The translations under genes were made by a program, and so were the position numbers. Below are positions 1,208-52,881 of a DNA stretch of 64,000 nt, piece after piece. Numbering within the stretch: position 1 is the stretch's first letter; every line of letters starts with the position of its first letter. Below the pieces are notes generated by a model, which saw nothing but the letters and a program-made list of their open reading frames with translations, was not told the DNA's origin and did no database searches. Source of the stretch: Patescibacteria group bacterium (lineage in GTDB: Bacteria; Patescibacteriota; Minisyncoccia; Phycocordibacterales; JAKFXT01). The DNA lies in contig JAKFXT010000008.1 in the NCBI GenBank assembly GCA_021731245.1, forward strand, positions 1,045-65,044, written 5' to 3'.

Positions 1208-1741
1208 ATGAAAAAAAGGAATTATGCTGTTCTCTCGGCGGCTTTGGTTTTCAACGCCGTACGTATTGGCTTCCCCGGTATTTCCGAAAAAAGGGGAAGT
1301 CCGGTAAGGAACGCTCATTTCCATGGTGCGTCCGCCAATGAGGGGCCTCTGGTCCGTTACAACGGCGAAGTGCTGGAGAATATCCTGGACCAAATCCAGG
1401 CGGTGGCAAAAAGCGATTTTTCCACCGAGGAAGACATCAAGGTCTTGGTTTCGGCTGGTTTGAGCGGAGTCTCCGTTCAGGTCGCGTTGTACCCGTTTTT
1501 GAGTGACGAGCTCGCGAACGACATCATCGTCAGGTACGCCAGCCTTCTCGAGAAGAAGGCGCTGTTCGAAGGCAAAAATCACGGCGACGTGTTTCTGGAG
1601 GCGAACAACTTCCTGGTGGAATCCCTCGGGATTAGCCGGGAGCAAGCATCCGAGTACTTCGGCTTCATCATCGAGCAGATGCTTCCGTATGTGCAAAGGT
1701 TGCAGGGTGGAGTCATCGAGCCGAGGGTTGCTGTCAGCTGA
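1208..1741 (+). CDS. hypothetical protein in a GC-rich, GC3-rich island (177 aa from ATG 1208; ORF-track start 1127 rejected)
   Basis: codon third positions mostly G/C unlike flanking genes; RBS GGGAGA 6 nt upstream of ATG 1208; followed by strong terminator. Confidence 0.5.
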   Translation: MKKRNYAVLSAALVFNAVRIGFPGISEKRGSPVRNAHFHGASANEGPLVRYNGEVLENILDQIQAVAKSDFSTEEDIKVLVSAGLSGVSVQVALYPFLSDELANDIIVRYASLLEKKALFEGKNHGDVFLEANNFLVESLGISREQASEYFGFIIEQMLPYVQRLQGGVIEPRVAVS

Positions 1742-1760
1742 CGGTGACCCGCAAGACAAA

Positions 1761-1790
1761 ACGCCGACCTTCGGGTCGGCGTTTTTTTTA
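1761..1790. terminator. bidirectional rho-independent terminator between GC-rich ORF and ftsZ
   Basis: hairpin gccgacc-ttcg-ggtcggc followed by T8 on + strand and a T-rich run on - strand. Confidence 0.55.
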
Positions 1791-1791
1791 T

Positions 1792-2988
1792 TTACTTTTT
1801 ATTCCTTCGGAGGAATGCAGGCACTGCACCCCAATCATCATTGTCTTCGTCCGGTAGTGGCTTTGTATTTTTTTGTTCAACCGGAATTGATTTTACTTCC
1901 ACTTTGACTTCTTCTTTTGGAGAATCTTTTTCTTTTGATGTAAAAATACTACTCATTATTTTTTTCTCTTCCTCAATTGCTTTTTCACGATTACGAATTG
2001 GAAATAGTGATTCGCGAGTATTGTGGGCTGATGGATCAGGAAAACCTGTAGCAATCACCGTTACTTTGACTTCATTTTTCTTTAGTTTCTCATCGTAAAT
2101 TGTTCCGAAAATAACACGAGCATTTGGATCAATTGATTCGGTTATAACTTTTGCCGCATCTTGTATTTCTAGCATTCCCAAATCATCGCCACCGGAAACT
2201 GCAAAGAGCACCCCTTTTGCATTATGTATTGAAATATCGAGAAGTGGAGAATTCACGGCGGCCTTTGCTGCCTCAACTGCTCTGTTTTCGCCTGATGCCA
2301 TACCTATACCCATAAGAGCAGAGCCTGCATTTTCCATAACAGAACGAATATCAGCAAAGTCCACATTGATGATTCCAGGTGTAGTAATCAAATCGGAGAT
2401 TCCTTCCACTGCTTGGCGCAAGACATCATCGCACATTGCGAAGGCTGTCTTTACAGAAGTGTCTTTGGAGACTGTAGCTAGGATTCTGTCATTAGGAATA
2501 ACAATTAATGCGTCCACTTGTTTACGTAATTCATCGAGCCCTTGTTCAGCCAAACGTGAGCGTTGTGAACCTTCAAAAGAAAATGGTCTTGTAACAACAC
2601 CGACAGTTAGAGCCCCAAGTTCTTTGGCAGCTTGCGCAACAATTGGAGCCGCCCCTGTTCCAGTTCCGCCTCCCATTCCACCTGCTATGAAAACCATATC
2701 AGCTCCTTTTATTGCTTCTTGAATTTCTTCTTTAGTTTCTTCCGCAGCCCTACGTCCAATATCTGGATTCATTCCAGCACCAAGTCCGTGAGTTAAATTT
2801 TTTCCAATATGAATTTTCTTTTTTGCATCAGAATGTTGCAAATCTTGTGCGTCAGTATTAACAGCAATAAAGTCTACTCCTTTAACTCCAGTCTTTATCA
2901 TGTGATTGGTAGCATTTTTTCCTGAGCCACCAACACCAATAACCCTTATACGTGCAAATGTTTCGATTTCTGGAGAAATTTTAGGCAT
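1792..2988 (-). CDS. ftsZ: cell division GTPase FtsZ
   Basis: tubulin signature GGGTGTG, NTD... IAVNTD, T7 loop region; ftsA immediately upstream. Confidence 0.95.
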
Positions 2989-3138
2989 ATTTTCCTTCCG
3001 TGATTAAATCTCATAATAGCAGACGGTTTTACAATTGGGACCTCGACACTATAGGGGATTTTGTGTTGGAATTACATAAAAAACAAGCAAAAAACGACTC
3101 TGTTGAGCCGTTTTTTCTTAAATTCAGATTTCTTATTT

Positions 3139-4326
3139 TTACGGAAGTAGTGGCCGAACCATATTATGTAGCCCACGCCAGATTTTTTTACCTATGGCAG
3201 ATATATCTCCAGAAGATTTTATTCTAGAGTCTCCAGTAAAGCCCCAAATAGTTAATCCATAAGCTGGAGACCACGATGCGTCTTTCACTGGTTTGCCATC
3301 TTGTGAGAGGGGAAAGGTTCCGATTTTTGATGGAAGTTTTAAAGCAGCTTTAGCCAGCTCTTCAATCGTATGAATACTGGAACCTCCTCCGGTCAAAATA
3401 ATTCCTGCAGGTAATAATCCATTTTTATTAACTTTTTTTAAATGAGCTTCAATTAAATCAAATATATCTGAGAGACGCGCTACTACTATTTTATCCAATT
3501 CTTTTTTAGGAAATTGAGTTCCAGTAATTGCACCGAGCTTTATGCTCTCGGCTTCTTCAAGTGAGACGCGAAGGCCAAGCGCTATGTCATTGGTTATGTC
3601 AGTTGAGCCTATTGGAAAGACTTCAAGCGAATAGGGAATTCCATTTTCAAAGATTACAACGGAAACAGTCTCGGCCCCAATATTTGCTAAGACACAGCCA
3701 GCCATTTTTTGCGCTTTAGTTAAAGACACAAGACTTCCTGCAAGTGGTGTTGCCATTGCATCAATCACATCTATATCTGCCTCTTCTACTGCTGCAATCA
3801 AATCATTTAAATGTTGCTCAAGGCAGGTAATGAAAAGCATTTTGCAATCAAGTTTGAGTCCCTTCATTCCAATTGGGGAATTGCTCATAATATCTTTCCC
3901 ATCCACTTTATAACTTAGAGGAATAGAGTGCAGGATTTTTCTATTTATTATTGCCGCTTGCGACAATTGTAATCTGGCAGCTTCTTGCACTTTTTCTATA
4001 TCAAGTTCTGTTATCTCACCATCTCCACGAGAGACTATGGCGCTACCCGTATCCGTCACTGATTCAAGCCCAACGCCCCCGATTGAGATGAAAGCATTTT
4101 TTATTTTTATTTTGGCGATTTTCTCTGTTTGAGCGATGGCTTCCTTTACGCTTTCTGTTACGTCCGCTGAATTAATTATGTAGCCATGACGAAGTCCTTT
4201 TGACTCACTGTATCCGGTTGCAATTATTTTAGGGAAGTCTTTATCTTTTTCATTTATGCGCTCCGAAACCACCACTTTGACTTGGTGAGAACCTATATCT
4301 ATTCCAACAGAAATATTTCGTGCCAT
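3139..4326 (-). CDS. ftsA: cell division protein FtsA (actin-like ATPase)
   Basis: N-terminal VGIDIGS actin-fold phosphate-1 motif; synteny ftsA-ftsZ. Confidence 0.85.
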   Translation of the reverse strand: MARNISVGIDIGSHQVKVVVSERINEKDKDFPKIIATGYSESKGLRHGYIINSADVTESVKEAIAQTEKIAKIKIKNAFISIGGVGLESVTDTGSAIVSRGDGEITELDIEKVQEAARLQLSQAAIINRKILHSIPLSYKVDGKDIMSNSPIGMKGLKLDCKMLFITCLEQHLNDLIAAVEEADIDVIDAMATPLAGSLVSLTKAQKMAGCVLANIGAETVSVVIFENGIPYSLEVFPIGSTDITNDIALGLRVSLEEAESIKLGAITGTQFPKKELDKIVVARLSDIFDLIEAHLKKVNKNGLLPAGIILTGGGSSIHTIEELAKAALKLPSKIGTFPLSQDGKPVKDASWSPAYGLTIWGFTGDSRIKSSGDISAIGKKIWRGLHNMVRPLLP

Positions 4327-4362
4327 TTTTATTTAAAAGGCACACACTTCAAGATAAAAAAA

Positions 4363-4749
4363 TTAAACTCCCATTTTTCTCCGAACTGCTGCCTCCTTTA
4401 TGTCCATTGTAACGCTATGAGAGTAACCTTTCAAATGAAACAAACCGTGGATAAATAGAAATGCCACCAGATTTGAAAATTTACGCCCAAATTTCTTCTC
4501 TTCCGCTTTTATTGTTTTAAGGTCAAGGAAAATTTCCCCACTCGTTTTTGATAATGAAAAGCTCAAAACGTTCGTAGAATAATTTTTATTTCTGTAATCT
4601 TTATTTAATTTTTTAGATAGATTCGATGTAGCAAAAACTAATGAAAGTTTGTATTTTTTACCCAAAACCTCGTTCTTTATTAAAAGGAAATTAATCTTCG
4701 GTTTTTTGTACCGAGTAGTATTTGTTATAGAGAATAGACTCTCTCTCAT
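4363..4749 (-). CDS. ybeY: rRNA maturation endoribonuclease YbeY-like
   Basis: C-terminal HGLFHLKGYSH matches YbeY HxxxHxxGxxH zinc motif; ~128 aa. Confidence 0.5.
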   Translation of the reverse strand: MRESLFSITNTTRYKKPKINFLLIKNEVLGKKYKLSLVFATSNLSKKLNKDYRNKNYSTNVLSFSLSKTSGEIFLDLKTIKAEEKKFGRKFSNLVAFLFIHGLFHLKGYSHSVTMDIKEAAVRRKMGV

Positions 4750-4761
4750 ATGGCAGTCTCT

Positions 4762-5031
4762 TTAGCGGCGACCGCGTCTCTTAACTTCTATTACCTTGCC
4801 CATTTTTATAGCTTCTTCATAGACAGCTTTTTTAGATAATCGAGTTAGAGCCTTCTTCTTTCTAACGTAGTGGCTCTTAGTGCGTTCATTGTAGCGAATA
4901 CTGCGGACACGATTTAAAACACCTGATCCTTGCACTCTTTTGGTGAAGCGGCGAATAAGGTTCGTTGCGTTTTCGTTGGCGTTTTTTACTACCTCTACAT
5001 TTACTGAAGTCATGGGGAAAAAGATTAACAC
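4762..5031 (-). CDS. rpsU: 30S ribosomal protein S21 (true start possibly internal ATG at 5013)
   Basis: IRRFTKRVQGSGVLNRVRSIRYNERTKSHYVRKKK matches S21 consensus (RRFKR...GVL.E.R...YEKP...RKR). Confidence 0.6.
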   Translation of the reverse strand: MLIFFPMTSVNVEVVKNANENATNLIRRFTKRVQGSGVLNRVRSIRYNERTKSHYVRKKKALTRLSKKAVYEEAIKMGKVIEVKRRGRR

Positions 5032-5066
5032 ATTTTATTTACCTCTGCAACGAATGCTAATAGGGG

Positions 5067-6290
5067 CTAATCTTTTGAGAAGTGTTTTATATAGTGTGGG
5101 AGTTCTAATACGGGCACTGTTTCTTGAGAGCGGTTTTTCATATTGCGTATTATGGCACTGCCTTCAAGGGCCTCCTTTTGACCTATTATTATCATGAAAG
5201 GAATTTTCAGACTTTCTGCTGTTGCAATTTGAGCTGAAATTCTATCTTTAGAAAGAGATTGGTGAATTGGGATTTTTCCTTTACGTAATATTTCAAGTGC
5301 GGCCAAGCTTTTTATTTTTGCTTCAAACCCCAAGTGTATTAAATAAACTTTTGGTTTTTTTGTTTTTAGTTCTTGCTTTGTCTTTTTGGGAACCAATCCT
5401 AGTCCACCAAGGGAAATAGTGATACCAACAGCGGGCACTTCTTTTTTAGCACCGAAACGCTTTACCAAATCATCAAACCTACCTCCACGAGCAAGGACTG
5501 GGTCAAATTTATTTTTGGGATACATTTTATTTTGTTCGTTTTTGGTTTTTATTTCAAAAATAGTACGGGTGTAATATTCCTTTCCTCCCACAAGACAATT
5601 ATTTATTGTGTAAGGGACATTCATGCTTTCCAAAAATTCAAGAACTTCTGCAAAGTGAATACGACTTGTTTCTGTGAGGGCACTTATTGGTTTCGGCGCC
5701 TGATCCTTAAAGAGCATGCACTTATCTTGGGCACATTCTAGAACTTTGAATATATCTTTTTTCAAATTAGGGCGACAATGTGAAGGAACTTCTTCTTCGT
5801 GCTTTTTATAGTAATTATTGAACTCTCTACTGAAGCGAGCGATTGATTCACGGTCTCCCAAACTATTTATTTGAATAAAAGGGTCAGCAAATCCAGACTC
5901 TTCTATTATGGTAAGAGCTGTTTTGAATAGTAGGGCTTCAGCAATTGAACGTGACACCCCGATAATCTCCAGAGAAAACAAAACTGCATCTTTCCCGCCA
6001 TAATCTTCGCGCTTCATGTATTTACGAAGCGGCTCTGTGTGATAAAGCATTAATGGTTGTGGAAGCTCTCCAAAATTGTAATCAAGATAAGCTTTCATTA
6101 AGTCTGGTCTATTTATTTCTCCAGGGAGACCCTCTTTTGCTTCGGCTGGCGCAAAAGCTTTCTTTCTACCAGTCCTAGGTAGAATCTTTAGAGTTTCTTG
6201 TAATGAAGAAAATCCATAATAATTAGCAATTGATATTGCGTTTTCGAAAAGTTCATTTTTTGATCCTTTATCCATAATCAAATTATTCAA
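5067..6290 (-). CDS. hisS: histidyl-tRNA synthetase-like class II aaRS (divergent)
   Basis: motif 3-like ARGGRFDDL, INSLGDRES, LVGGKEYYTRTIFE and C-terminal anticodon-binding-like domain; motif 2 arginines partly replaced by K. Confidence 0.55.
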   Translation of the reverse strand: MNNLIMDKGSKNELFENAISIANYYGFSSLQETLKILPRTGRKKAFAPAEAKEGLPGEINRPDLMKAYLDYNFGELPQPLMLYHTEPLRKYMKREDYGGKDAVLFSLEIIGVSRSIAEALLFKTALTIIEESGFADPFIQINSLGDRESIARFSREFNNYYKKHEEEVPSHCRPNLKKDIFKVLECAQDKCMLFKDQAPKPISALTETSRIHFAEVLEFLESMNVPYTINNCLVGGKEYYTRTIFEIKTKNEQNKMYPKNKFDPVLARGGRFDDLVKRFGAKKEVPAVGITISLGGLGLVPKKTKQELKTKKPKVYLIHLGFEAKIKSLAALEILRKGKIPIHQSLSKDRISAQIATAESLKIPFMIIIGQKEALEGSAIIRNMKNRSQETVPVLELPHYIKHFSKD

Positions 6291-6888
6291 CTTTTTCTTC
6301 CAAATTTATTTTTCCAGGAAACAAACTTATATCTTTTGGTGGATACAATCTTAGAAAAGCTCTGCCGATTATATTTTCTTTCGGTACGGCTCCCCAAATT
6401 CTGGAATCCGAACTGTGAGAACGGTTGTCTCCAAGTACAAAGTACTCATCTTTCTTAAGTGTTGTTTGAAATTGTCCAACAGACTTAAAAGTTATATATG
6501 ATTGGTCAATTTGGAAACCATTTGGGTTCTTATTATTTTTTATAGTTATATTATTGTCAGAAATTAAAACAGTTTCTTCAGGTAGAGCTATTATTCTTTT
6601 AATAAAATATTTTTCAGGATTTTTAGGATAGCGAAAGATGATGACATCATTTCGTTTAGGGTCTTCTAGATTATAAGAGATGCGATCTACTATTAAATAA
6701 TTCAAATCTTCAAAAGTTGGTTCCATTGAGGCACCGGAAACTATGAATGGTTCTGCAATAAAAAAGCGAATAGGAAGTACTATTGCTAAAGTTATAATCA
6801 CGAAGCGAAATGTTTCTTTAAAGAACGATTCTTCTTTTTTTTCTTCCATATTGGTGCCAATTGTAATACCCGCATTCGTTTGACACAA
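6283..6888 (-). CDS. lepB: signal peptidase I
   Basis: N-terminal TM, catalytic GASMEPTF (Ser) box and GDNRSHSSDSRIWG box. Confidence 0.85.
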   Translation of the reverse strand: MCQTNAGITIGTNMEEKKEESFFKETFRFVIITLAIVLPIRFFIAEPFIVSGASMEPTFEDLNYLIVDRISYNLEDPKRNDVIIFRYPKNPEKYFIKRIIALPEETVLISDNNITIKNNKNPNGFQIDQSYITFKSVGQFQTTLKKDEYFVLGDNRSHSSDSRIWGAVPKENIIGRAFLRLYPPKDISLFPGKINLEEKVE

Positions 6889-7068: not shown

Positions 7069-7656
7069 ATGAAGTTTACAGTTATAGGCCTGGGCAATCC
7101 TGGGGGAGAATATAAGGATACTCGGCACAACACGGGAGCTTTAATTGTAGAATATCTGCAATCAGCGTTAGATTCTTCTCCTTGGAAGGAAAATAAAAAG
7201 GCAAAAGCACTAGAGAGTGTTGGAAAAATTGGGAAACACACCGTTACACTCATATTGCCGGAACAATTTATGAATAATAATGGTAAGGTTCTTCCTTCAT
7301 TAATAAAAAGTAAGGCGGATGCAGGGCGACTTCTGGTAATTTATGATGAATTGGATTTACCTATTGGGAAAATGAAAATGTCTTTCGGGCGCTCTTCTGG
7401 TGGACACCGAGGACTCGATTCTGTGATGCGAGCAATAAAGACAAAAGATTTTATGCGTATTCGTGTTGGTGTTTCGCCTGAAAGTAAAGGTGTAGCTAAA
7501 AAACCAAAGGGGGAAGACGCTGTGATTAAATTTATTTTGGGGAAATTTAAACCTGATGAACTAGAAATTCTCAAAAAAGAAAAACTAAAAATCAAAAAGG
7601 CATTAGAAAATATTGTAGAGAACGGATTTGAGAGAGCAATGGGGGAGTTTAATTAA
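7069..7656 (+). CDS. pth: peptidyl-tRNA hydrolase
   Basis: N-terminal LGNPG...Y..TRHN motif characteristic of Pth. Confidence 0.9.
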   Translation: MKFTVIGLGNPGGEYKDTRHNTGALIVEYLQSALDSSPWKENKKAKALESVGKIGKHTVTLILPEQFMNNNGKVLPSLIKSKADAGRLLVIYDELDLPIGKMKMSFGRSSGGHRGLDSVMRAIKTKDFMRIRVGVSPESKGVAKKPKGEDAVIKFILGKFKPDELEILKKEKLKIKKALENIVENGFERAMGEFN

Positions 7657-7686
7657 AAAATCCGGCTTTGAACCGGATTTTTTAAT

Positions 7687-8838
7687 TTACTTTACGTAAG
7701 TAAGGGCCATCTTTTGATCTTTTGGATCAAATAGATTTATTTTGAATTTGTAGGTTTTACCAAGTTCAAGTGTTGAGCGAAGTTTGGCTTCATTGTTTTC
7801 AAATTCTGAAATATGAACCAATCCTGCAATTCCTTCTTCAATTGAAGCGAGAGCCCCGTGTTTATTGTGTTTGATTATGACACCCTCAACAGTCATATCT
7901 TTTTGATACTTCTTGTCAGCTTCTTTCCAAGGGTTTTCTTTGAGTGCCTTAACAGAAAGAGACACCTTACCATCTTTTATTTCAATAACTTTTACTTTTA
8001 TGTGATCTCCTACCTTGAAGATTGAGCGTGGGTCTTCCACTAAGCCCCAATCAATTTCTGAAATGTGTACCAACCCTTCAAGTCCTTCTTCTATTTTTAC
8101 GAATACTCCGAAGTCCACAATTCCTGTAACAGTTCCTTCCATAAGGTCTCCGACTCCATATTTACTAACAATTTCCTGTTTTTCTTTTTGGTCGTGGCTC
8201 TTTTCAGAGAAAATAAGTTTTCCTTCTTTAGGAGTTGCGCCAATTATAGTAACGGAGAGAACTTGTCCAACAAGTTTTTTAAGTTCCTCATATATTTTAT
8301 CTTTGTCCCCGTCATCTATTCTTGGATAGTGTTCAGCTTTAAGTTGTGAAGCTGGAAGAAATCCTACAATTCCTTGCCACTCCATTATAAGACCACCTTT
8401 ATTTGCATCTTTAACAGGTAAATCCAAAAGCTTCTTCTCTTTAATGGCGCTATCTGCCTCACTCCAAATCAAAGCTTGGCGAGCCTCTTTAAGAGAAAGT
8501 TCTAGATAACCCTCTTTATTATTTGTATCTACTACTTTAGCGGCAACATTGTCGCCAATATTTATGCGACGAATAACATCGCGCGCATTTAGAAATTCTT
8601 TGCCGTAAATTATTCCAGTACCGTATGGGTGCAAGTCAATATAAACAGATGCTTTTTCAACTGCTATGACCGGACCTTCTACAATATCTCCTGCTTGTGG
8701 GGGATTCTTCTCATCTTGGAGAAGTTTCGCCATCAAGCTGTTCTTTTTAGATTTTTTTTCTTCTTCGTGGTTTTCGTTTTCTTCTACTTCTAAATCCTTT
8801 CCTTTTTTTATTAAAGTTTCAGAGTCTGACATATTCAA
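7687..8838 (-). CDS. rpsA: 30S ribosomal protein S1 (multi-S1-domain RNA-binding protein)
   Basis: four repeated S1/OB-fold modules (G..V.G.V..v...G.fV.l) with acidic N-terminal extension. Confidence 0.75.
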   Translation of the reverse strand: MNMSDSETLIKKGKDLEVEENENHEEEKKSKKNSLMAKLLQDEKNPPQAGDIVEGPVIAVEKASVYIDLHPYGTGIIYGKEFLNARDVIRRINIGDNVAAKVVDTNNKEGYLELSLKEARQALIWSEADSAIKEKKLLDLPVKDANKGGLIMEWQGIVGFLPASQLKAEHYPRIDDGDKDKIYEELKKLVGQVLSVTIIGATPKEGKLIFSEKSHDQKEKQEIVSKYGVGDLMEGTVTGIVDFGVFVKIEEGLEGLVHISEIDWGLVEDPRSIFKVGDHIKVKVIEIKDGKVSLSVKALKENPWKEADKKYQKDMTVEGVIIKHNKHGALASIEEGIAGLVHISEFENNEAKLRSTLELGKTYKFKINLFDPKDQKMALTYVK

Positions 8839-9673: not shown

Positions 9674-10312
9674 ATGGTTATCACTTATTTCGGACATGAA
9701 TTTTTTAAAGTGCAATTTGGAGACATAACTCTTGCTTTTAATCCTATTTCTAAAGACTCCAAATTAAAGACTTCTCGCTTTGGGGCAGATATCGCTCTTA
9801 TTTCAATGAGGAATGATGATATGAATGGTGAGGACCAAGTCTCTTTTGGAGAAAGAAACGCTTTTGTTATAAAAGGACCAGGTGAATATGAAGTGAAAGA
9901 GGTGTTTGTAAAAGGATTTCTCTCTAATCCAAAAGAAAAATCTGGACCACTAAATACAATTTATACAGTGAATCTTGAGGGAATGAACATTTGTTTTTTG
10001 GGGGCCCTCGCTAACAAAGACTTAGGCTCTGATGTGAAAGAAGTCTTGGGTGATATAGATATTCTTTTTGTGCCAATTGGCGGAGGTGACGTTCTTACTT
10101 CATCTGAAGGATATAAGCTCGCAGTTTCGCTTGGCGCAAGATTAATTATTCCAATGCATTATGGAGAAGGAAAAACTGGAGCGGATAATTTAAAAACTTT
10201 TCTAAAAGAAGGCGGTAAGGGAAATGTATCGCCTGAAGAAAAATTAACTCTAAAGAAAAAAGATTTGGAAGGCAAAGAAGGAGAAATTGCTGCTCTTAGT
10301 TCCAATGCGTAA
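9674..10312 (+). CDS. MBL-fold (UPF0173-like) hydrolase-like protein, metal ligands apparently degenerate
   Basis: ITYFGHEFF N-terminus and PMHYGE C-terminal motif resemble UPF0173 metallo-beta-lactamase fold proteins; HxHxDH not intact. Confidence 0.4.
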   Translation: MVITYFGHEFFKVQFGDITLAFNPISKDSKLKTSRFGADIALISMRNDDMNGEDQVSFGERNAFVIKGPGEYEVKEVFVKGFLSNPKEKSGPLNTIYTVNLEGMNICFLGALANKDLGSDVKEVLGDIDILFVPIGGGDVLTSSEGYKLAVSLGARLIIPMHYGEGKTGADNLKTFLKEGGKGNVSPEEKLTLKKKDLEGKEGEIAALSSNA

Positions 10313-10430: not shown

Positions 10431-10727
10431 GTGTTAAGATACAATACAAATATGAGTTGGCTGTTTAATTACATACACAGATTACAGCAGTTACCTTTGG
10501 ATGAGAAAAAAAGGAAAGCTCGTGTAATTGCGGGCGTACTAACTTTTATTGTTTTTATTTTTTGGCTTTCAACTTTGGCCCTTTCCAACGATAGGAGTGT
10601 CACAAGTGGAGTAAATATAGATATAACTCCATTAAAAAACATAAAATCTGCAACAGGTGACATTGTAAACAGCTTAACTAATTTGAAAAATAGTTTTAAT
10701 AAAATGGGGACTACAACTCTGGAGTAG
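10431..10727 (+). CDS. small hypothetical membrane protein (likely starts at ATG 10452)
   Basis: one predicted TM helix; two hairpins follow the stop. Confidence 0.3.
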   Translation: MLRYNTNMSWLFNYIHRLQQLPLDEKKRKARVIAGVLTFIVFIFWLSTLALSNDRSVTSGVNIDITPLKNIKSATGDIVNSLTNLKNSFNKMGTTTLE

Positions 10728-15672: not shown

Positions 15673-16044
15673 ATGAAATCTTTTTTTAAATTGTTAATTG
15701 TTAGTTGTGGGTTGTTAGTCCCACTTATTGTTTTCGCCGCTCCAGAAAATTTCAAATCTTTAATTAATATATTCACCAATTTAATAAAAGCTATAATTCC
15801 AGTAATAGGAGGCCTAGCAATTCTTTATTTCTTTTGGGGTATAGCAAAATATATATTTTCTGCTGGCAGTGAAGAACTTCGAAGTGAGGCTAAAAATGTA
15901 ATGACTTGGGGACTGGTTGCAATGTTCGTCATGTTTTCTTTTTATGGAATTTTGTCACTTTTTGGGTACTCTTTTTTACCTAGTTTTGGTCAAAATAGCT
16001 CTGGGTCAAACAATTTAGAAATCATAGACCCGTATAGACCTTAA
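15673..16044 (+). CDS. TrbC/VirB2-like small pilin-family protein, paralog 2
   Basis: signal peptide; FFWGIAKYIFSAGSEE...K..MTWGLVAMFVMF core. Confidence 0.5.
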   Translation: MKSFFKLLIVSCGLLVPLIVFAAPENFKSLINIFTNLIKAIIPVIGGLAILYFFWGIAKYIFSAGSEELRSEAKNVMTWGLVAMFVMFSFYGILSLFGYSFLPSFGQNSSGSNNLEIIDPYRP

Positions 16045-18671: not shown

Positions 18672-19062
18672 CCCGAACTAAATCGTATCTACCCCTAATA
18701 ATAGCATATTTTATAGTAAAAGTCAAGTGCTAGAAACACAAAAATACGGCTTTATTTAGCCGTATTTTTGTGTAATTTTATTTGCGGTGAACTTGTGGTC
18801 ACAAATATTTCCTCGTCGTCACTAGAAAATTTCGCGACCCCAGCTCGCGATTTCATTTGCTAATGAAATATCGCTCCGCTTCTCACAAACTAAAAACCTC
18901 CCGCAGGGGAGATTTTTTACGTTTGTGAGCAACAATAATTTGTTCGCCGTCGCTCACAAATTTTCCTTACCCGGCCTCACTTATTTTACTTGCTAGTAAA
19001 ATATAGTTCCGGCTCTCACAAGCATGAAAAAATCCCAAGCAGTTGGGATTTGTTTCATCTTG

Positions 19063-23923: not shown

Positions 23924-26605
23924 ATGTTGCCATTTGAACACTTTACATCACGTGCCCGCGACGCTATACGCAAAGCTCATGAGCTTGCAGTTGAAAAAGG
24001 CATAAACCAAGTAAATCCAAATCATTTGGCTTTGGCGCTTTTGATGCAGGAAGAAAGCACAATTTATTCTATTTTTGAAGTATTAGAAATTGATGGTGCC
24101 GCTGTGATGGATTCTCTTTTGGAAACTGCAGAAAGTGGAGATTCCGGCCAAACTCTTTCTCCCTCATTTCAAATTTATTTAACACCGGAACTCGCTCAAA
24201 TTTTGGAGCACTCTGGAAAAGTCGCGCGCAATCTAGAAGATGAGTTCGTGGGTGTGGAACATCTATTTCTTGCGCTTTTAGAAGTTGCTTCAACTACCAA
24301 AGATTTGTTTACACGTTTCCGATTAAATAAAGATTTAGTTTTGAAGGTTGTTAACGAAATTCGCAAAGGGAAGATTAAAGATGCTCCTCAAGAAAAGAAA
24401 TTTCGTGTAATACAAAAGTATGCGAGAAACTTAACTAAGCTTGCTGCGGAAAATAAATTAGATCCAGTTATTGGGCGTGATACAGAAATATCTCGCATAA
24501 TGCAAATACTTTCTCGTCGCACCAAGAATAACCCTATTTTGATTGGAGAAGCGGGGGTAGGAAAAACTGCAATAGTAGAAGGTCTTGCCAATCGCATTGC
24601 AGCCGGTGATGTACCGGACTCACTTAAAAATAAAGAACTTATTTCACTCGACTTGGGGCTATTGATTGCTGGGACTAAGTATCGCGGTGAATTTGAAGAA
24701 CGGCTTAAATCAATTATGAAAGAAGTAGAACGTTCTGAAGGTAAGATTATAGTTTTTATAGATGAGATTCACACTATTGTTGGTGCAGGAGCCGCGGAAG
24801 GAGCAATGGACGCATCAAATATGCTAAAGCCAGCTTTGGCTCGCGGAGAACTCCGTGCAATTGGTGCAACAACAATAAAAGAATATCAAAAGCATATTGA
24901 GAAAGACCCAGCCTTGACGAGACGTTTTCAACCAGTTTATGTATTAGAGCCATCAGTAGAAGATGCCATTGCGGTTCTCCGTGGACTTAAAGAAAAATAC
25001 GAACTTTATCATGGTGTGCACATATCAGACGACGCGCTTATTGCGGCTGTGCAATTTTCTAGTCGGTATATTACAGATAGATATTTACCAGATAAGGCGG
25101 TGGACTTGATTGATGAAGCGGCGTCAGCCCTTCGCATTGCGCTTGAAAGCAAACCTCCAATTTTGGAAGAAACACACAGAAAGATAATGCGTCTTGAAAT
25201 TGAAAAAGAGGCTTTGAAAAAAGAAGCAGGAACCAGTGAAGGTAAAAACGCTAAAATTCGTGTTAAAGCGATTGATAAAGATATAGCGGACCTAAAAGAA
25301 AAAACTCACGACATCGAGCTTCGTTGGGGGAATGAGAAAGAACTTTTAGGAAGTATCAGAGAATTGAAAAAACAATTAGAACAACTTCGAGTTGATGCAG
25401 AAAACGCTGAAGTAAAATCAGATTTAGCAAAGGCCGCCGAAATTCGTTATGGCAAAATTCCAGAACTTACCAGTGAGCTTTCTGTAAAAATTAAAAAAAT
25501 AGAAAAATTACAACGCTCACGCCGTATTTTAAAAGAATCAATCACAGAACAAGAAATTGCCGATGTTGTTTCTCGTTGGACTGGAATACCAGTAAACAGA
25601 ATGCTTGAAGAAGAAGCGGAAAAGCTTGGCAGAATGGAAGAAGAATTGAAAAAGAGAATTGTAGGACAAGATGATGCCGTTAAGAAAATATCTGACGCTG
25701 TGCGACGCTCTCGTGCCGGTATTGCGGACCCAAACCGCCCTATTGGTTCATTTATTTTCTTAGGACCAACAGGTGTAGGAAAGACAGAGCTTACTAAAGC
25801 ACTTGCAGAATTTATGTTTGATACAGAAAAAGCTCTTATAAGAGTAGATATGTCTGAATATATGGAACGTCACGCTGTTTCTAAAATGATAGGTTCACCC
25901 CCAGGGTACGTTGGATATGACGAAGGAGGTGCTCTTACCGAAACTGTGCGTCACAGGCCATATTCAGTGATTCTGCTTGATGAAATAGAGAAAGCGCACC
26001 CAGAAGTGTTTAACCTACTGCTTCAGGTTTTTGATAATGGACGTCTCACAGATTCAAAGGGACGTGTCGCAAACTTCAAAAATTGTGTAATCGTTATGAC
26101 TTCAAATATCGGAGCACAATATATAGATAAGATGGAGCATATAGGTTTTTCTAGTGACAGAGGTAATGATGAAAAAGAATATAATTTGGCAAAAGAAAAA
26201 GTAGAGGAGTCGCTCAAAGAACACTTCCGTCCAGAATTCTTAAATCGCATTGATGACATTATTATGTTTGATATTTTGAAACCTGAAGCAATTAAAAATA
26301 TTGTTGGTATTCAAATTGATTTAGTTCGCACTCGTCTGAAAGAAAGGGGAATTGAACTTGTTCTTGAAGAATCCGTCATGGAACTTCTAAGTAAAGAAGG
26401 TTATGACCCACATTATGGAGCGCGCCCTTTGAAGCGATTAATTCAAAACAAAATACTTACACCGATTGCTAATTTTATGATTGGTAAAAATGTTATGGAA
26501 GGCGGAATGGTAACTATCGGTGTTAAAAATGGTGAATTTACTTTTGATGTAAAAAAGGGTAGAGGTGTTCGAATTACTGTTCCGAAAGAAACTGTAAAAG
26601 CTTAA
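23924..26605 (+). CDS. clpB: ATP-dependent chaperone ClpB
   Basis: Clp N-domain repeats, two AAA+ modules (GEAGVGKT; GPTGVGKT), long coiled-coil M-domain, 893 aa. Confidence 0.9.
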
Positions 26606-26610
26606 TTAAA

Positions 26611-26640
26611 AATCCCTAACTTAAAGTTAGGGATTTTTAA
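26611..26640 (+). terminator. clpB terminator
   Basis: hairpin aaatccctaac-ttaaa-gttagggattt followed by TTTT. Confidence 0.55.
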
Positions 26641-26656
26641 TTTTATCTGGTGCGGA

Positions 26657-46734: not shown

Positions 46735-46778
46735 TCTGAAGTAAATTTGTTCCCAAGGGAGGTCTCAGTGGCTTATGG

Positions 46779-47091
46779 TTTCGTGTGTTCCCGTTGCGGA
46801 AGTGTCGAGGGTGTGCACGGATTTGAGCCTGATGAGGATGGCTCAAAACGCTTGAGTGCATATCGCTCCAATCTCAACTCCTGTCCTGGCTTCAAGTACA
46901 AGAGAAAAGATGAGAGATTGGCTGTACACGCATACTCATGGTGTCCAACCAGTACTTTTCCTAGAGAAATACTCTTGAGAGATCAGAGACGGCAATATGG
47001 AGGAAAAAAAATTAAACACATCAACCACTCAGTTACAGCAATTTTGTTCTTCAGCGGGGGTCGCAGTGCGGTGGTCGACATCGGCTCGTAG
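46779..47091 (+). CDS. small Cys-rich (CxxC) hypothetical protein in a GC-rich island, GTG start
   Basis: AAGGGAGG RBS before GTG 46779; terminator 47103-47136 (gggcgc...gcgccc + T-run). Confidence 0.35.
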
Positions 47092-47201
47092 TTTTTGGGG
47101 TGGGGCGCTTGAAACATGGCGCCCTTTCTTTTTGTCTTGTAAAACTTTTTTTAAAGTAGTTTAATAGCCTTGACTGAACATTCACAAAGAAAGGACAAAG
47201 G

Positions 47202-47597
47202 ATGTTTCAACAAAGCGATTTCCCCACCCCTCGAATACTGGGTCTTGCGTGGGCAACGGCTTTTTCCATGGACAGAGAAGTCGAAAGAATTATTTCTTCC
47301 TGGAATGACGGTAAAGCCAAGATTTCGTTCATGCAGTTGGTGAACTCTAAGCCTTTTGGCCCCCTTGCTTTTGATGCCATGCTTGAATCTCTGAACCCGG
47401 ACGTTACCGCTACACTGCGAAACTTAGTCAAAAAAGATTTGAACAAGAAACTCTGGGTCGTGTATTGCAAACTAAAAGCAGAAAAAGGTCTACGTAGGCC
47501 ACCAACCTTCAATCCATTGACCTTTCTCCACGCCTGTACTTTGGACCCAGCCATTTTTTCTTATCAAGCTGAAGAGTATTGCGTGCAGGAAGTTTGA
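47202..47597 (+). CDS. hypothetical protein in a GC-enriched island
   Basis: ORF with AAGGA RBS; terminator 47598-47632 (agtgcgcc...ggcgcact + TTTTGTTT). Confidence 0.35.
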   Translation: MFQQSDFPTPRILGLAWATAFSMDREVERIISSWNDGKAKISFMQLVNSKPFGPLAFDAMLESLNPDVTATLRNLVKKDLNKKLWVVYCKLKAEKGLRRPPTFNPLTFLHACTLDPAIFSYQAEEYCVQEV

Positions 47598-47660
47598 AGT
47601 GCGCCCCGACACCAAGGGCGCACTTTTTGTTTGGGGGATTTTTTCAGATATACTAGTGCA

Positions 47661-48698
47661 ATGTCGGAAGTTGCTTTATATAGAAAATACAGACCAAAGA
47701 CTTTTGCTGATGTCTTGGATCAAGAAGAAGTAGTTAAGGTATTGGAGTCTGCCATAAAAAAAGATAATATTTCTCACGCCTACATTTTTGCGGGAAGCCG
47801 TGGTACTGGTAAAACATCTGTTGCTAGAATATTTGCAAGAGAAATCGGCACAACCGATGATGATATTTATGAAATAGACGCGGCTTCAAATCGAGGAATA
47901 GACGAAATTCGTGTTATTCGGGATGCGGTACACACTTCACCGTTTTCTTCAAAATATAAAGTATATATTTTAGACGAAGCGCACATGCTTACTAAAGATG
48001 CCTGGAATGCACTTTTGAAAACTTTAGAAGAGCCACCAGCTTATGTGATTTTTATATTAGCTACGACCGAGATAGAAAAGGTGCCAGAAACTGTACTTTC
48101 TCGATGCCAAACATTTTCTTTTAAAAAACCAACCCACGAAACTTTAAAAAAGGTGATTACGGATATAGCTAAAGCTGAAGGTTTTGCATTAGATAAATCT
48201 GCATCAGAACTCATTTCTTTTTTGGGAGATGGATCTTTTCGTGACGCACAAGTGATTTTACAAAAGATAATTACTGCACAAAGCGGTAAAAATATCTCAA
48301 TTGAAGATGTGGAAGCAGTAAGTGGGGCGCCAAAAGGAAAACTCTTGGAGGATGTTATTTTAGGTATTGAAGAAAAGAACGGTGGTAAGTCACTTTTAGC
48401 GCTTGAAAAAGCCAAGGAACAAAACATCGACATGAAATTATTTCTCCGGTTACTTCTTGAAAGGGTGCGCGTAGTACTTTTACTTCGTTTTGCCAAAGAA
48501 ATGGAGAAAAAGCTTTCGGAAAATTATACAGAAGATGATTTTAAATTATTGAAAGATTTAGCTAATAAAAAAGGTGGGGTAATAAATTCTAAAGTATTGG
48601 ACGAACTACTTCGAGCGTATGAAGAAATAAACTTCGCCGCTATCAAAGAACTCCCACTCCAGCTTGCCCTCATGCGAATAATAGGTGAAAATAAGTAA
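47661..48698 (+). CDS. dnaX: DNA polymerase III subunit gamma/tau (short)
   Basis: YRPKTF, AAA+ Walker A GSRGTGKTS, Walker B ILDEAHML, sensor SRC. Confidence 0.85.
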   Translation: MSEVALYRKYRPKTFADVLDQEEVVKVLESAIKKDNISHAYIFAGSRGTGKTSVARIFAREIGTTDDDIYEIDAASNRGIDEIRVIRDAVHTSPFSSKYKVYILDEAHMLTKDAWNALLKTLEEPPAYVIFILATTEIEKVPETVLSRCQTFSFKKPTHETLKKVITDIAKAEGFALDKSASELISFLGDGSFRDAQVILQKIITAQSGKNISIEDVEAVSGAPKGKLLEDVILGIEEKNGGKSLLALEKAKEQNIDMKLFLRLLLERVRVVLLLRFAKEMEKKLSENYTEDDFKLLKDLANKKGGVINSKVLDELLRAYEEINFAAIKELPLQLALMRIIGENK

Positions 48699-48703
48699 AT
48701 ATA

Positions 48704-48733
48704 TATTCTGATATTCTGCAGAATATCAGAATA
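48704..48733. repeat. 30-bp perfect palindrome tattctgatattctgcagaatatcagaata, copy 1 (between dnaX stop and ArsR start)
   Basis: read directly; identical copy at 49005-49034. Confidence 0.7.
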
Positions 48734-48746
48734 GATAAATGAGTTT

Positions 48747-49013
48747 ATGAAAACCAGTAAGCAACTAGAAAGATATTTCAAAGGTGCAGCAAATCATTGG
48801 CGCATTTCCATATTGTTATTAGTCGACAAACAAGAGGGCGTTACAGTAGAGGGTATTGCGGATAATTTGAATGGAAATTTAAAAACAATTTCTCAACACA
48901 CAAGGTCTTTGGTTCATGCTGGGTTACTTAATAAAAAATATAAAGGTAACAGAGTTAATCACACTCTATCTCCTTATGGAAAAATGTTTTTACGCTTCAT
49001 AAAACTATTCTGA
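48747..49013 (+). CDS. ArsR/SmtB-family winged-helix transcriptional regulator
   Basis: HTH region RISILLLVDKQEGVTVEGIADNLNGNLKTISQHTRSLVHAGLL matches ArsR-type wHTH; 88 aa. Confidence 0.6.
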   Translation: MKTSKQLERYFKGAANHWRISILLLVDKQEGVTVEGIADNLNGNLKTISQHTRSLVHAGLLNKKYKGNRVNHTLSPYGKMFLRFIKLF

Positions 49014-49034
49014 TATTCTGCAGAATATCAGAAT
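49005..49034. repeat. 30-bp perfect palindrome, copy 2 (overlaps ArsR stop; followed by TAGTTTTAT, terminator-like)
   Basis: identical to 48704-48733. Confidence 0.7.
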
Positions 49035-49124
49035 AGTTTTATGGCAATTGGGAAGACAAGAGATTGAGGAAAAGAGGTTTTTGTTGTAAATTAGTTAAGT
49101 TTTGCAAAGTTTCGTGTTTAGAGC

Positions 49125-49195
49125 TGGGGGATCGTCTAATGGTAGGACAGCGGCCTTTGAAGCCGTTAATTGGGGTTCGAGTCCCTGTCCCCCAG
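49125..49195 (+). tRNA. tRNA-Gln (anticodon TTG), U1-A72 first pair
   Basis: acceptor TGGGGGA/TCCCCCA, D-arm GTCTAATGGTAGGAC, anticodon stem-loop GCGGC-CTTTGAA-GCCGT, T-arm GGGGTTCGAGTCCCT. Confidence 0.8.
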
Positions 49196-49222
49196 CTTTG
49201 AACAGGAAAATAAAATAATTTT

Positions 49223-52753: not shown

Positions 52754-52881
52754 ATTCTGAAAATTAGAAAACCCGCCTAAGGTATAAGGTTAGCCCTTAC
52801 CTTAGGCGGGTTTTCCTTTTATCGATTACTTATGATAAATTTAGTAAGGTATATAAAATTACAAATATTAAATAACACTCA

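Follow-up and report, generated by a model that had tools for sequence, protein, structure and literature searches.

A winged-helix gene bracketed by palindromes in Patescibacteria: a widespread cassette and probable autoregulatory unit

The best explanation for a 340-bp unit within a 64-kb stretch of patescibacterial DNA (hereafter the window, meaning the whole stretch analysed) is that it represents one copy of an ancient module of the Candidate Phyla Radiation (CPR)/Patescibacteria, in which a gene for a small winged-helix (wHTH) protein lies between two copies of a palindrome. This cassette is CPR-wide, uncharacterised and far more general than one genome. Its best-supported mode of working, judged from sequence comparison, would be that of an ArsR/SmtB autorepressor. 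The reading that we consider probable, with some reserve, is that of an ArsR-fold protein repressing its own gene at a palindrome of four pentamers on a leaderless promoter, with the downstream palindrome as hairpin and second site, the whole forming a relocatable and self-insulated unit. To our knowledge, almost nothing is known of gene regulation in the CPR, whose members cannot be grown alone and possess very few transcription factors. The wHTH family is a very small, highly conserved CPR factor that lacks a curated model scoring above threshold, and because genome sequences directly reveal its probable DNA site, the protein is immediately testable. Literature searches for the wHTH family or the palindrome motif, including searches by sequence string, found nothing relevant.

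Within the window, the 30-mer TATTCTGATATTCTGCAGAATATCAGAATA occurs exactly twice, 302 bp apart, with the conserved protein gene between the copies (Table 1). As the first-pass annotation had stated, the two copies are identical, although the second lies at 49006-49035, one base from the 49005-49034 reported there. The placement that it described is confirmed: the first copy (UP) begins 6 nt past the dnaX stop and ends 13 nt short of the ATG at 48747, and the second (DN) includes the stop codon of the open reading frame (ORF), TGA at 49011-49013. The perfect 30-bp palindrome that it recognized is, at DN, the core of a larger, 46-bp perfect palindrome at 48998-49043 composed of CATAAAAC, the 30-mer and GTTTTATG. 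The UP copy extends to a 38-bp palindrome of 95% complementarity at 48700-48737, and AGTTTTAT comes after the DN core. When the whole 64 kb was scanned filter-free with a covariance model of 34 related sites, only UP and DN matched, at 57-66 bits, with the next best match at 19 bits; the scan hence revealed no solo copy in the window. An origin in chance or an assembly artefact is ruled out for the pair, as the 30-mer with up to three mismatches had no match across 100 shuffles; the motif also recurs, in consistent reading frames, in assemblies that many studies produced independently. The two copies, 302 bp apart, do not form a CRISPR array by the criteria applied (at least three repeats of 24-48 bp with 25-70-bp spacers), and comparison of the hairpin with Rfam returned only sub-threshold, miRNA-like matches.

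Table 1. Positions of the cassette and its neighbours in the window, and of related copies at the named loci.
Feature	Position	Strand	Remarks
dnaX (clamp-loader gamma/tau), context	47631-48698	+	stop 6 nt before UP
UP palindrome, 30-bp perfect core	48704-48733	.	homologous UP sites in 17 cassettes
28-bp family core ATTCTGATATTCTGCAGAATATCAGAAT of UP	48705-48732		imperfect extension 48700-48737
Weak -10-like hexamer GATAAA	48734-48739	+	ends 7 nt before ATG
88-aa winged-helix protein, ArsR/SmtB fold	48747-49013	+	stop TGA 49011-49013
DN palindrome, 46-bp perfect	48998-49043	.	core 49006-49035; holds last 5 codons and stop
tRNA-Gln(ttg), context	49125-49196	+	90 nt 3' of DN core
Paralogous cassettes	L040:8055-8391 and 9944-10291		1.6 kb apart; 67% identical
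In-frame copies in prmC	L006:5074-5101; L022:1296-1323; L047:5323-5350; L048:3654-3681
In-frame copy in atpG	L007:6703-6730
In-frame copy in atpA	L007:7506-7533
In-frame copy in ychF	L038:8554-8581
In-frame copy in pgk	L018:3363-3390
In-frame copy in reverse transcriptase gene	L005:2448-2475

The protein encoded between the palindromes had been assigned to the ArsR family, an assignment that its fold upholds and its family scores do not. The window protein scores below cutoff against Pfam HTH_5 (PF01022; 21.6 bits vs 22), HTH_20 (21.9 vs 27) and the NCBIfam ArsR/SmtB model NF033788 (36.5 vs 55 bits), as does its MarR Pfam match, and its best sequence matches in the PDB are ArsR-like with E near 0.02 (0.019 for the top one). 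An AlphaFold2 model generated with 29 homologues (pLDDT 88) has the element order alpha1-alpha2-alpha3-alphaR-beta1-beta2-alpha5. Almost all of its top 50 Foldseek matches are ArsR/SmtB members (TM 0.74-0.88), including CadC, HlyU, SmtB, CzrA, ArsR and PagR, on which the model superposes; TM is 0.8-0.88 for the first four. Membership of the ArsR family is thus supported by the modelled fold, as opposed to family score thresholds or sensor sites. The protein has no Cys, and His, Asp and Glu are absent from its alpha5 (PYGKMFLRFIKLF); by sequence, a recognisable inducer-sensing site, whether metal ligands or a redox Cys pair, is absent. The ArsR/SmtB family includes non-sensing members, and the absence of such a site does not exclude membership. 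Residues K46, S49, H51 and T52 of the recognition helix are invariant, and a comparison by eye of recognition-helix residues with the variants of the motif gave no clear pattern. No nuclease or other catalytic domain, including HUH/Y1 or IS200/IS605-like domains, was found in the 88-aa protein.

The wHTH family comprises at least 803 protein clusters at 90% identity from many Patescibacteria/CPR lineages, with a length of exactly 88 aa in nearly every case, and clustering at 50% gave 161 clusters with E <= 1e-10. Among the best 120 of the at least 803 clusters, identity to the window protein is 68-80% throughout, names are generic only, and 85 members are exactly 88 aa long. Homologues fetched from metagenome-assembled genomes of Saccharibacteria and Parcubacteria remain 57-66% identical to it. 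The 22-bp core of the palindrome was found in 13 representative genomes, at one locus each, and in 22 metagenome contigs. All of these matches belong to Patescibacteria or other ultra-small lineages, bar one in Oscillospiraceae (L002; loci and contexts compared are labelled L0xx, homologous proteins P0xxx), which was set aside as a chance coding match missing the flanking ATT/AAT. Conservation reaches past the 22 bases used as query, to the 28 bp of ATTCTGATATTCTGCAGAATATCAGAAT. The core had no match in viral contigs, and a phage or viral element was rejected on this basis.

The bracketed design is conserved together with the protein. Eight loci matched by the core carry a wHTH homologue, and seven of these are bracketed exactly as in the window. 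A further eight contexts, each reached from a different homologous protein and selected on protein identity only, hence without bias as to the motif, all have the same architecture. Of 18 contexts in total, from diverse CPR genomes, 17 have the wHTH gene between two palindromes, so that the first-pass suggestion to look for the unit in related genomes leads to a widespread module. The sole exception is L018, in which the downstream arm has decayed and an ordinary GC hairpin takes its place. At this locus (L018:5313-5720), a left-arm remnant encodes the wHTH C-terminus FQRS, and tandem 13-mers (ATTCTAAATTACT) follow 3' of the GC hairpin at 5676-5720. The distance between UP and DN varies from 297 to 392 bp across cassettes; these spacings lack helical phasing, and DNA looping between the two sites is unsupported.

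Alignment of 34 UP and DN sites shows that, of 28 core positions, 16 are invariant and another five are at least 90% conserved. The conserved positions make up four ATTCT/AGAAT pentamers spaced 8-7-8 bp, of which two are direct and two inverted, rather than the simple 15+15 dimer site that had been proposed. The central dinucleotide is free, being mostly GC, with TG, CG, TA, AT and CA in sibling classes, and a weaker outer stem (aaC...Gtt) surrounds the core. As a bare hairpin would not require invariant pentamers, their invariance points to sequence-specific recognition by a protein. The remaining positions vary in concert: pair 5/24 is T:A, C:G or T:G, pair 8/21 is T:A or C:G, and all four Watson-Crick pairs occur at pair 6/23. 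Compensatory change at these three pairs amounts to 73 double-sided cells against 29.7 in shuffles, a count reached by none of 500 shuffles, and the arms pair in 89.7% of cells against 33-46% in slid controls. In L037, L039 and L040b, DN has T5 (within a TAA stop) with the partner A24, while UP of the same genome keeps C5:G24, a difference that, on the sequences compared, is selection for pairing beyond any half-site preference. The covariation of the arms argues for a base-paired stage, either an RNA hairpin or a cruciform. Wobble pairs number nine G.T against four A.C, a strand bias too weak to decide between RNA and DNA hairpins. The predicted RNA hairpins have energies of -15.3 kcal/mol for UP and -28.1 kcal/mol for DN, their stems being A+U-rich with three GC pairs.

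The position of UP relative to the gene suggests an operator. Of 17 cassettes, 12 have a hexamer between UP and the ATG that matches at least five of six TATAAT positions, and in 11 the ATG follows the end of the best -10-like hexamer by 6-9 nt, a distance that suggests a leaderless mRNA transcribed from a promoter at UP. From the end of the UP core to the -10-like box the distance is either 1-7 nt or 16-21 nt; in the latter arrangement, the box is preceded at 17-18 nt by TTGGAA of the right arm, at the -35 position. The palindrome accordingly overlaps or abuts -10/-35 elements in most cassettes, and binding of a protein to UP would block the promoter. ArsR/SmtB proteins typically repress their own genes at inverted repeats overlapping the promoter. 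Counting against this best explanation, the window hexamer GATAAA matches only four TATAAT positions, a strict sigma-70 promoter scan detected no promoter at the cassette, and L018 lacks the flanking palindromes. The 8- and 7-bp spacings of the pentamers are likewise a mismatch to the approximately 10 bp of a classical symmetric wHTH dimer.

The DN site is built into the end of the gene. In 14 of 17 cassettes, translation ends at DN positions 5-7, which read TGA or TAA, and the TTC of the first DN pentamer encodes the invariant final Phe of the protein; a C-terminal Phe is found in 110 of 120 proteins of the core family. In one of two paralogues at L040 (L040a), the ORF instead reads on through F-Q-H-S to a TGA supplied by the TG centre of the palindrome, and its UP copy has the same TG centre despite being non-coding. 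A T-rich tail follows DN in only about half of the 17 cassettes, so canonical intrinsic termination is not general, and in the window a terminator scan flagged only the minus strand of UP. Of the proposed terminator hairpin, the hairpin role is supported by the compensatory changes, and the T-run is lacking in about half of cases. Probably, DN is a stable 3' hairpin and second binding site that is not uniformly a canonical terminator.

From the way the cassettes are built, their conservation and covariation, the fold of the protein and the geometry of the promoter, we infer the following course of events. The 88-aa repressor, probably as two dimers or a tetramer, would bind UP, which covers the -35 element and spacer of the promoter of its own gene, and the gene would thereby repress itself. 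The DN site, fused to the last codons and stop, would offer a second binding site in DNA, whereas in the transcript it would form a highly stable hairpin at the 3' end, marking the limit of the tiny mRNA and stabilising it, with termination of transcription expected where a U-run follows. The UP site may likewise cap the transcript of an upstream gene, and in the window it could serve as the 3' hairpin of dnaX. With operator and promoter on one side and a hairpin on the other, the gene would be insulated and functional wherever it landed, a design that would fit its different location in every genome. Such a fixed arrangement, with an operator on a leaderless promoter and a second site at the stop, would constitute a compact gene that carries its own insulation.

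The likeness to ArsR/SmtB autorepressors without a metal site (HlyU, PagR, NolR and SdpR) lies in fold and small size, and ArsR/SmtB autorepressors also have an inverted repeat before the gene, over its promoter. Two dimers of SmtB are reported on one site, and the site here, at about 28 bp, could hold two. Unlike the 12-2-12 operators of SmtB, CzrA and CadC, however, it is composed of four pentamers spaced 8-7-8. The cassette further departs from ArsR/SmtB systems in its protein scores below family cutoffs, the lack of Cys and alpha5 ligands, the second site fused to the stop codon and the hairpin-like covariation of the arms. A regulated partner gene, for instance for an efflux pump or a metallothionein, is also lacking, and the site has solo copies elsewhere.

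A small wHTH gene beside a composite site of about 30 bp is also a feature of Bacillus subtilis RTP/Ter, AspA and TubR, which bind their own sites as more than one dimer and are autoregulating. The palindrome might, in the same manner, be a chromosome-organising site of the parS, Ter or matS type, with the wHTH protein marking a few chromosomal positions, some of them within genes, in the service of segregation, replication-fork or domain functions, and autoregulation secondary. The extreme conservation of the site across lineages of phylum rank and its persistence within coding sequence, as with parS, would agree with such a role, as would a weak match of the protein to the centromere-binding wHTH AspA. 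This match is insignificant (E = 1.2), however, and solo sites differ in position from one genome to another. The cassette differs from these systems in having sites on both sides of the gene, no skew or terminus signal and no partition motor: the locus shows no GC-skew switch, on which ground an origin or terminus site was rejected, and none of the contexts inspected contained a linked gene for ParA, TubZ or another motor. We therefore regard a chromosome-organising role as very improbable.

As the first-pass annotation had suspected, the unit looks self-contained and portable, a reading supported by its variable neighbourhoods, a polymorphism between cassette and solo site, and a paralogous pair. 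The neighbours of the cassette differ in every context compared. Dus, DnaX and OmdA are common to the window and L039, at 59-68% identity, yet the L039 cassette lies about 6 kb from the equivalent place and nothing is left after its dnaX. At L019 the order is LigT-UP-wHTH-DN-MurC, whereas at syntenic L020 a single palindrome stands between LigT and MurC, the flanking proteins being 56-72% identical. The two paralogous cassettes of L040 each have their own variant of the palindrome, and in the TG-centre cassette UP and DN are identical, which suggests that protein and site duplicate together. Taken together, the variable neighbourhoods, the L019/L020 polymorphism and the L040 paralogues indicate that the unit relocates and duplicates as a whole. 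Two further copies at L040 are solo, at 10556 and at 15942, the latter 14 nt after the greA stop. In L039, three small genes also occupy the place of the approximately 900 bp between dus and dnaX of the window (46735-47630), a stretch with no Rfam match whose 131-aa ORF (47202-47597) has no Pfam match.

Movement of this kind could also reflect site-specific recombination, in which the palindromes would be crossover sites for a recombinase acting in trans and the wHTH gene the cargo or an accessory factor of a mini-cassette able to integrate and excise. Integron cassettes with attC sites and Xer-dif systems share with the unit an ORF bounded by palindromic sites, a stop codon inside the downstream site, an 11-6-11-like geometry (here, arms of 11-13 bp around a variable centre, as in dif or attC) and polymorphism between cassette and solo site. 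The single palindrome of L020 resembles an excision product of the L019 cassette, the window and L039 hold the cassette at different places among shared genes, two sites surround a NifU-like gene at L024, and insertions in L016 and P0505 fall exactly at palindrome centres. Simple recombination between the two direct 30-bp repeats, however, would equally explain solo sites. No recombinase, Xer or integrase gene was found near the window cassette or in 11 fetched contexts, and the sites, unlike those of integrons, have no extrahelical bases, R/L boxes or bulges. Their symmetry is perfect and so gives no directionality, the arms are unlike dif and do not vary from phylum to phylum, one and the same gene is nearly always carried, and the architecture is stable over deep divergence rather than patchy. 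Such a recombination cassette is accordingly judged quite improbable.

With respect to L024, the observation itself is of GC- and TG-centre palindromes that bracket a 75-aa NifU-like gene, not a wHTH gene, at 6547-6882. The related locus L011 has one copy 5' of the NifU-like gene, beside a superoxide-dismutase-like gene.

Exact matches to the core outside the cassettes are about twice as frequent as within them, at approximately 15 solo and eight cassette distinct loci. About eight of the solo copies lie 4-32 nt past the stop codons of unrelated genes, which include gpmA, greA, ychF, ligT, gatB/miaA and a PD-(D/E)XK nuclease gene. The palindrome as a generic terminator, the alternative raised at first pass, is therefore answered differently by location: the window contains the two cassette copies only, while elsewhere copies do follow unrelated genes. 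For the window, this alternative was rejected because the terminator-like hairpins there differ in sequence. These ordinary hairpins, at 7651-7687, 18736-18773, 26604-26642 and 52767-52815, are unrelated to the palindrome and are probably the normal bidirectional terminators of the genome; those at 7651 and 26604 are flanked by A/T runs. A search with the 30-mer had been expected to define a regulon, and no coherent regulon emerges from the positions of the palindrome, which lie after unrelated genes or inside housekeeping genes. At L032:478-505, the tmk (thymidylate kinase) stop codon falls within an AT-centre palindrome, which shares the TTC-TAA register of DN and lies 16 nt before the next gene.

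Nine copies lie in frame inside genes, where they always encode H-S-x-I-L-(Q/K/E)-N-x-(R/G)-M; positions of in-frame copies are given in Table 1. In PrmC, the copies sit just before the NPPY-type motif (ANLPY here), and 23 of 120 CPR orthologues read HS(D/N)IL(Q/K/E)N..M in place of the native FIKSDLLKNIKG, with length unchanged. The peptide occurs in Q, K and E versions, corresponding to three centre classes. One K and one E copy were checked at the DNA level; their centres are CTTAAG and CTTGAG, the four pentamers are kept, the palindrome is imperfect, and close relatives have decayed versions. The AtpG copy of L007 lies within a lineage-specific 14-aa insertion that is missing from the closest homologues (66-70% identical), and at the palindrome YchF of L038 exceeds its L009 homologue by a net 6 aa. 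An in-frame palindrome that adds a short peptide to a conserved gene, as in the AtpG loop, recalls the Rickettsia palindromic elements, which differ in being approximately 100-150 bp rather than 28-30 bp and in belonging to another phylum. Further, the copies described here are coupled to the gene of a DNA-binding protein, and that in PrmC replaces residues and adds none. With the same palindrome in frame, the housekeeping genes offer a new instance of coding sequence that harbours selfish or regulatory DNA.

The solo and in-gene copies are not predicted by a plain model of operator and autoregulation, and because of them both the recombination-site reading and one modelled on REP sequences keep an appreciable probability. 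According to the latter, the palindromes are dispersed, self-propagating or gene-converting elements that serve as 3' hairpins or terminators, and the wHTH protein is a partner analogous to RAYT that would bind the hairpin or cruciform and promote or control its spread, rather than simply regulate itself. As in REPIN-RAYT systems, palindrome copies flank a single-copy gene whose product plausibly recognises them, further copies lie just past stop codons, and hairpin symmetry is kept, strictly so even where UP and DN of one genome differ. The excess of solo copies over cassette copies, the AtpG insertion, the PrmC copies with their decayed relatives, and the L016 locus, where at least eight copies of three to four classes include some split at the centre, are all in keeping with spread. 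Against this, the wHTH protein has no HUH/Y1 nuclease or other catalytic domain, no transposase or recombinase lies near the window cassette, and no target-site duplications were identified. The copy number is low, at two in 64 kb and a few per genome rather than the tens to hundreds of REP sequences per genome. Copies inside genes and UP over the promoter of the gene are further departures from REP/RAYT, and the invariant pentamers together with the promoter overlap fit a conventional operator. On balance, a REP-like nature of the palindrome is considered unlikely.

A bolder version, which we hold to be rather unlikely, would make of the whole a CPR-wide, nuclease-free system of the REPIN-RAYT type, with a vertically kept "guardian" wHTH protein and a palindrome that spreads. 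The protein would then bind every copy and act genome-wide as a roadblock, insulator or termination factor in these minimal genomes, and the palindrome, as part of the same conjecture, would spread by gene conversion or hairpin-dependent insertion, after genes and in frame inside the essential genes of PrmC, AtpG, YchF and Pgk. The dispersed and intragenic palindromes are the part of these findings that could prove new. The self-insulated autorepressor unit remains the preferred account of the cassette itself.

Several loci present the palindrome in unusual forms. Within a 9.4-kb stretch of L016, at least eight palindromes of three to four sibling classes (GC, CG, TA and CA) lie at 1400-5900, between small unannotated ORFs and with no wHTH gene in the stretch. 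Two of them are split at the exact centre by an insert that starts with cgacYaaaWtctcttc, amounting to about 60 nt in the copy at 1652-1729, and the GC-class sites are carried on 125-nt repeats. The PrmC homologue P0505 echoes these centre-split copies in having a 12-aa insertion (ACPVVNPSSTTG) exactly at the would-be centre of the palindrome (HSDIL|...|ENIKM).

The palindrome also explains a recurrent annotation error at the N-terminus of the wHTH proteins. Because its reading frames are open, start sites are systematically misplaced, and the public gene calls of P0002, P0014, P0018, P0038 and P0090 extend the N-terminus through UP. The same over-extension is found among representatives of the 50% clusters, including P0242, P0243, P0247 and P0250, and yields spurious N-terminal peptides such as HSNILQNVGM or MLEC...
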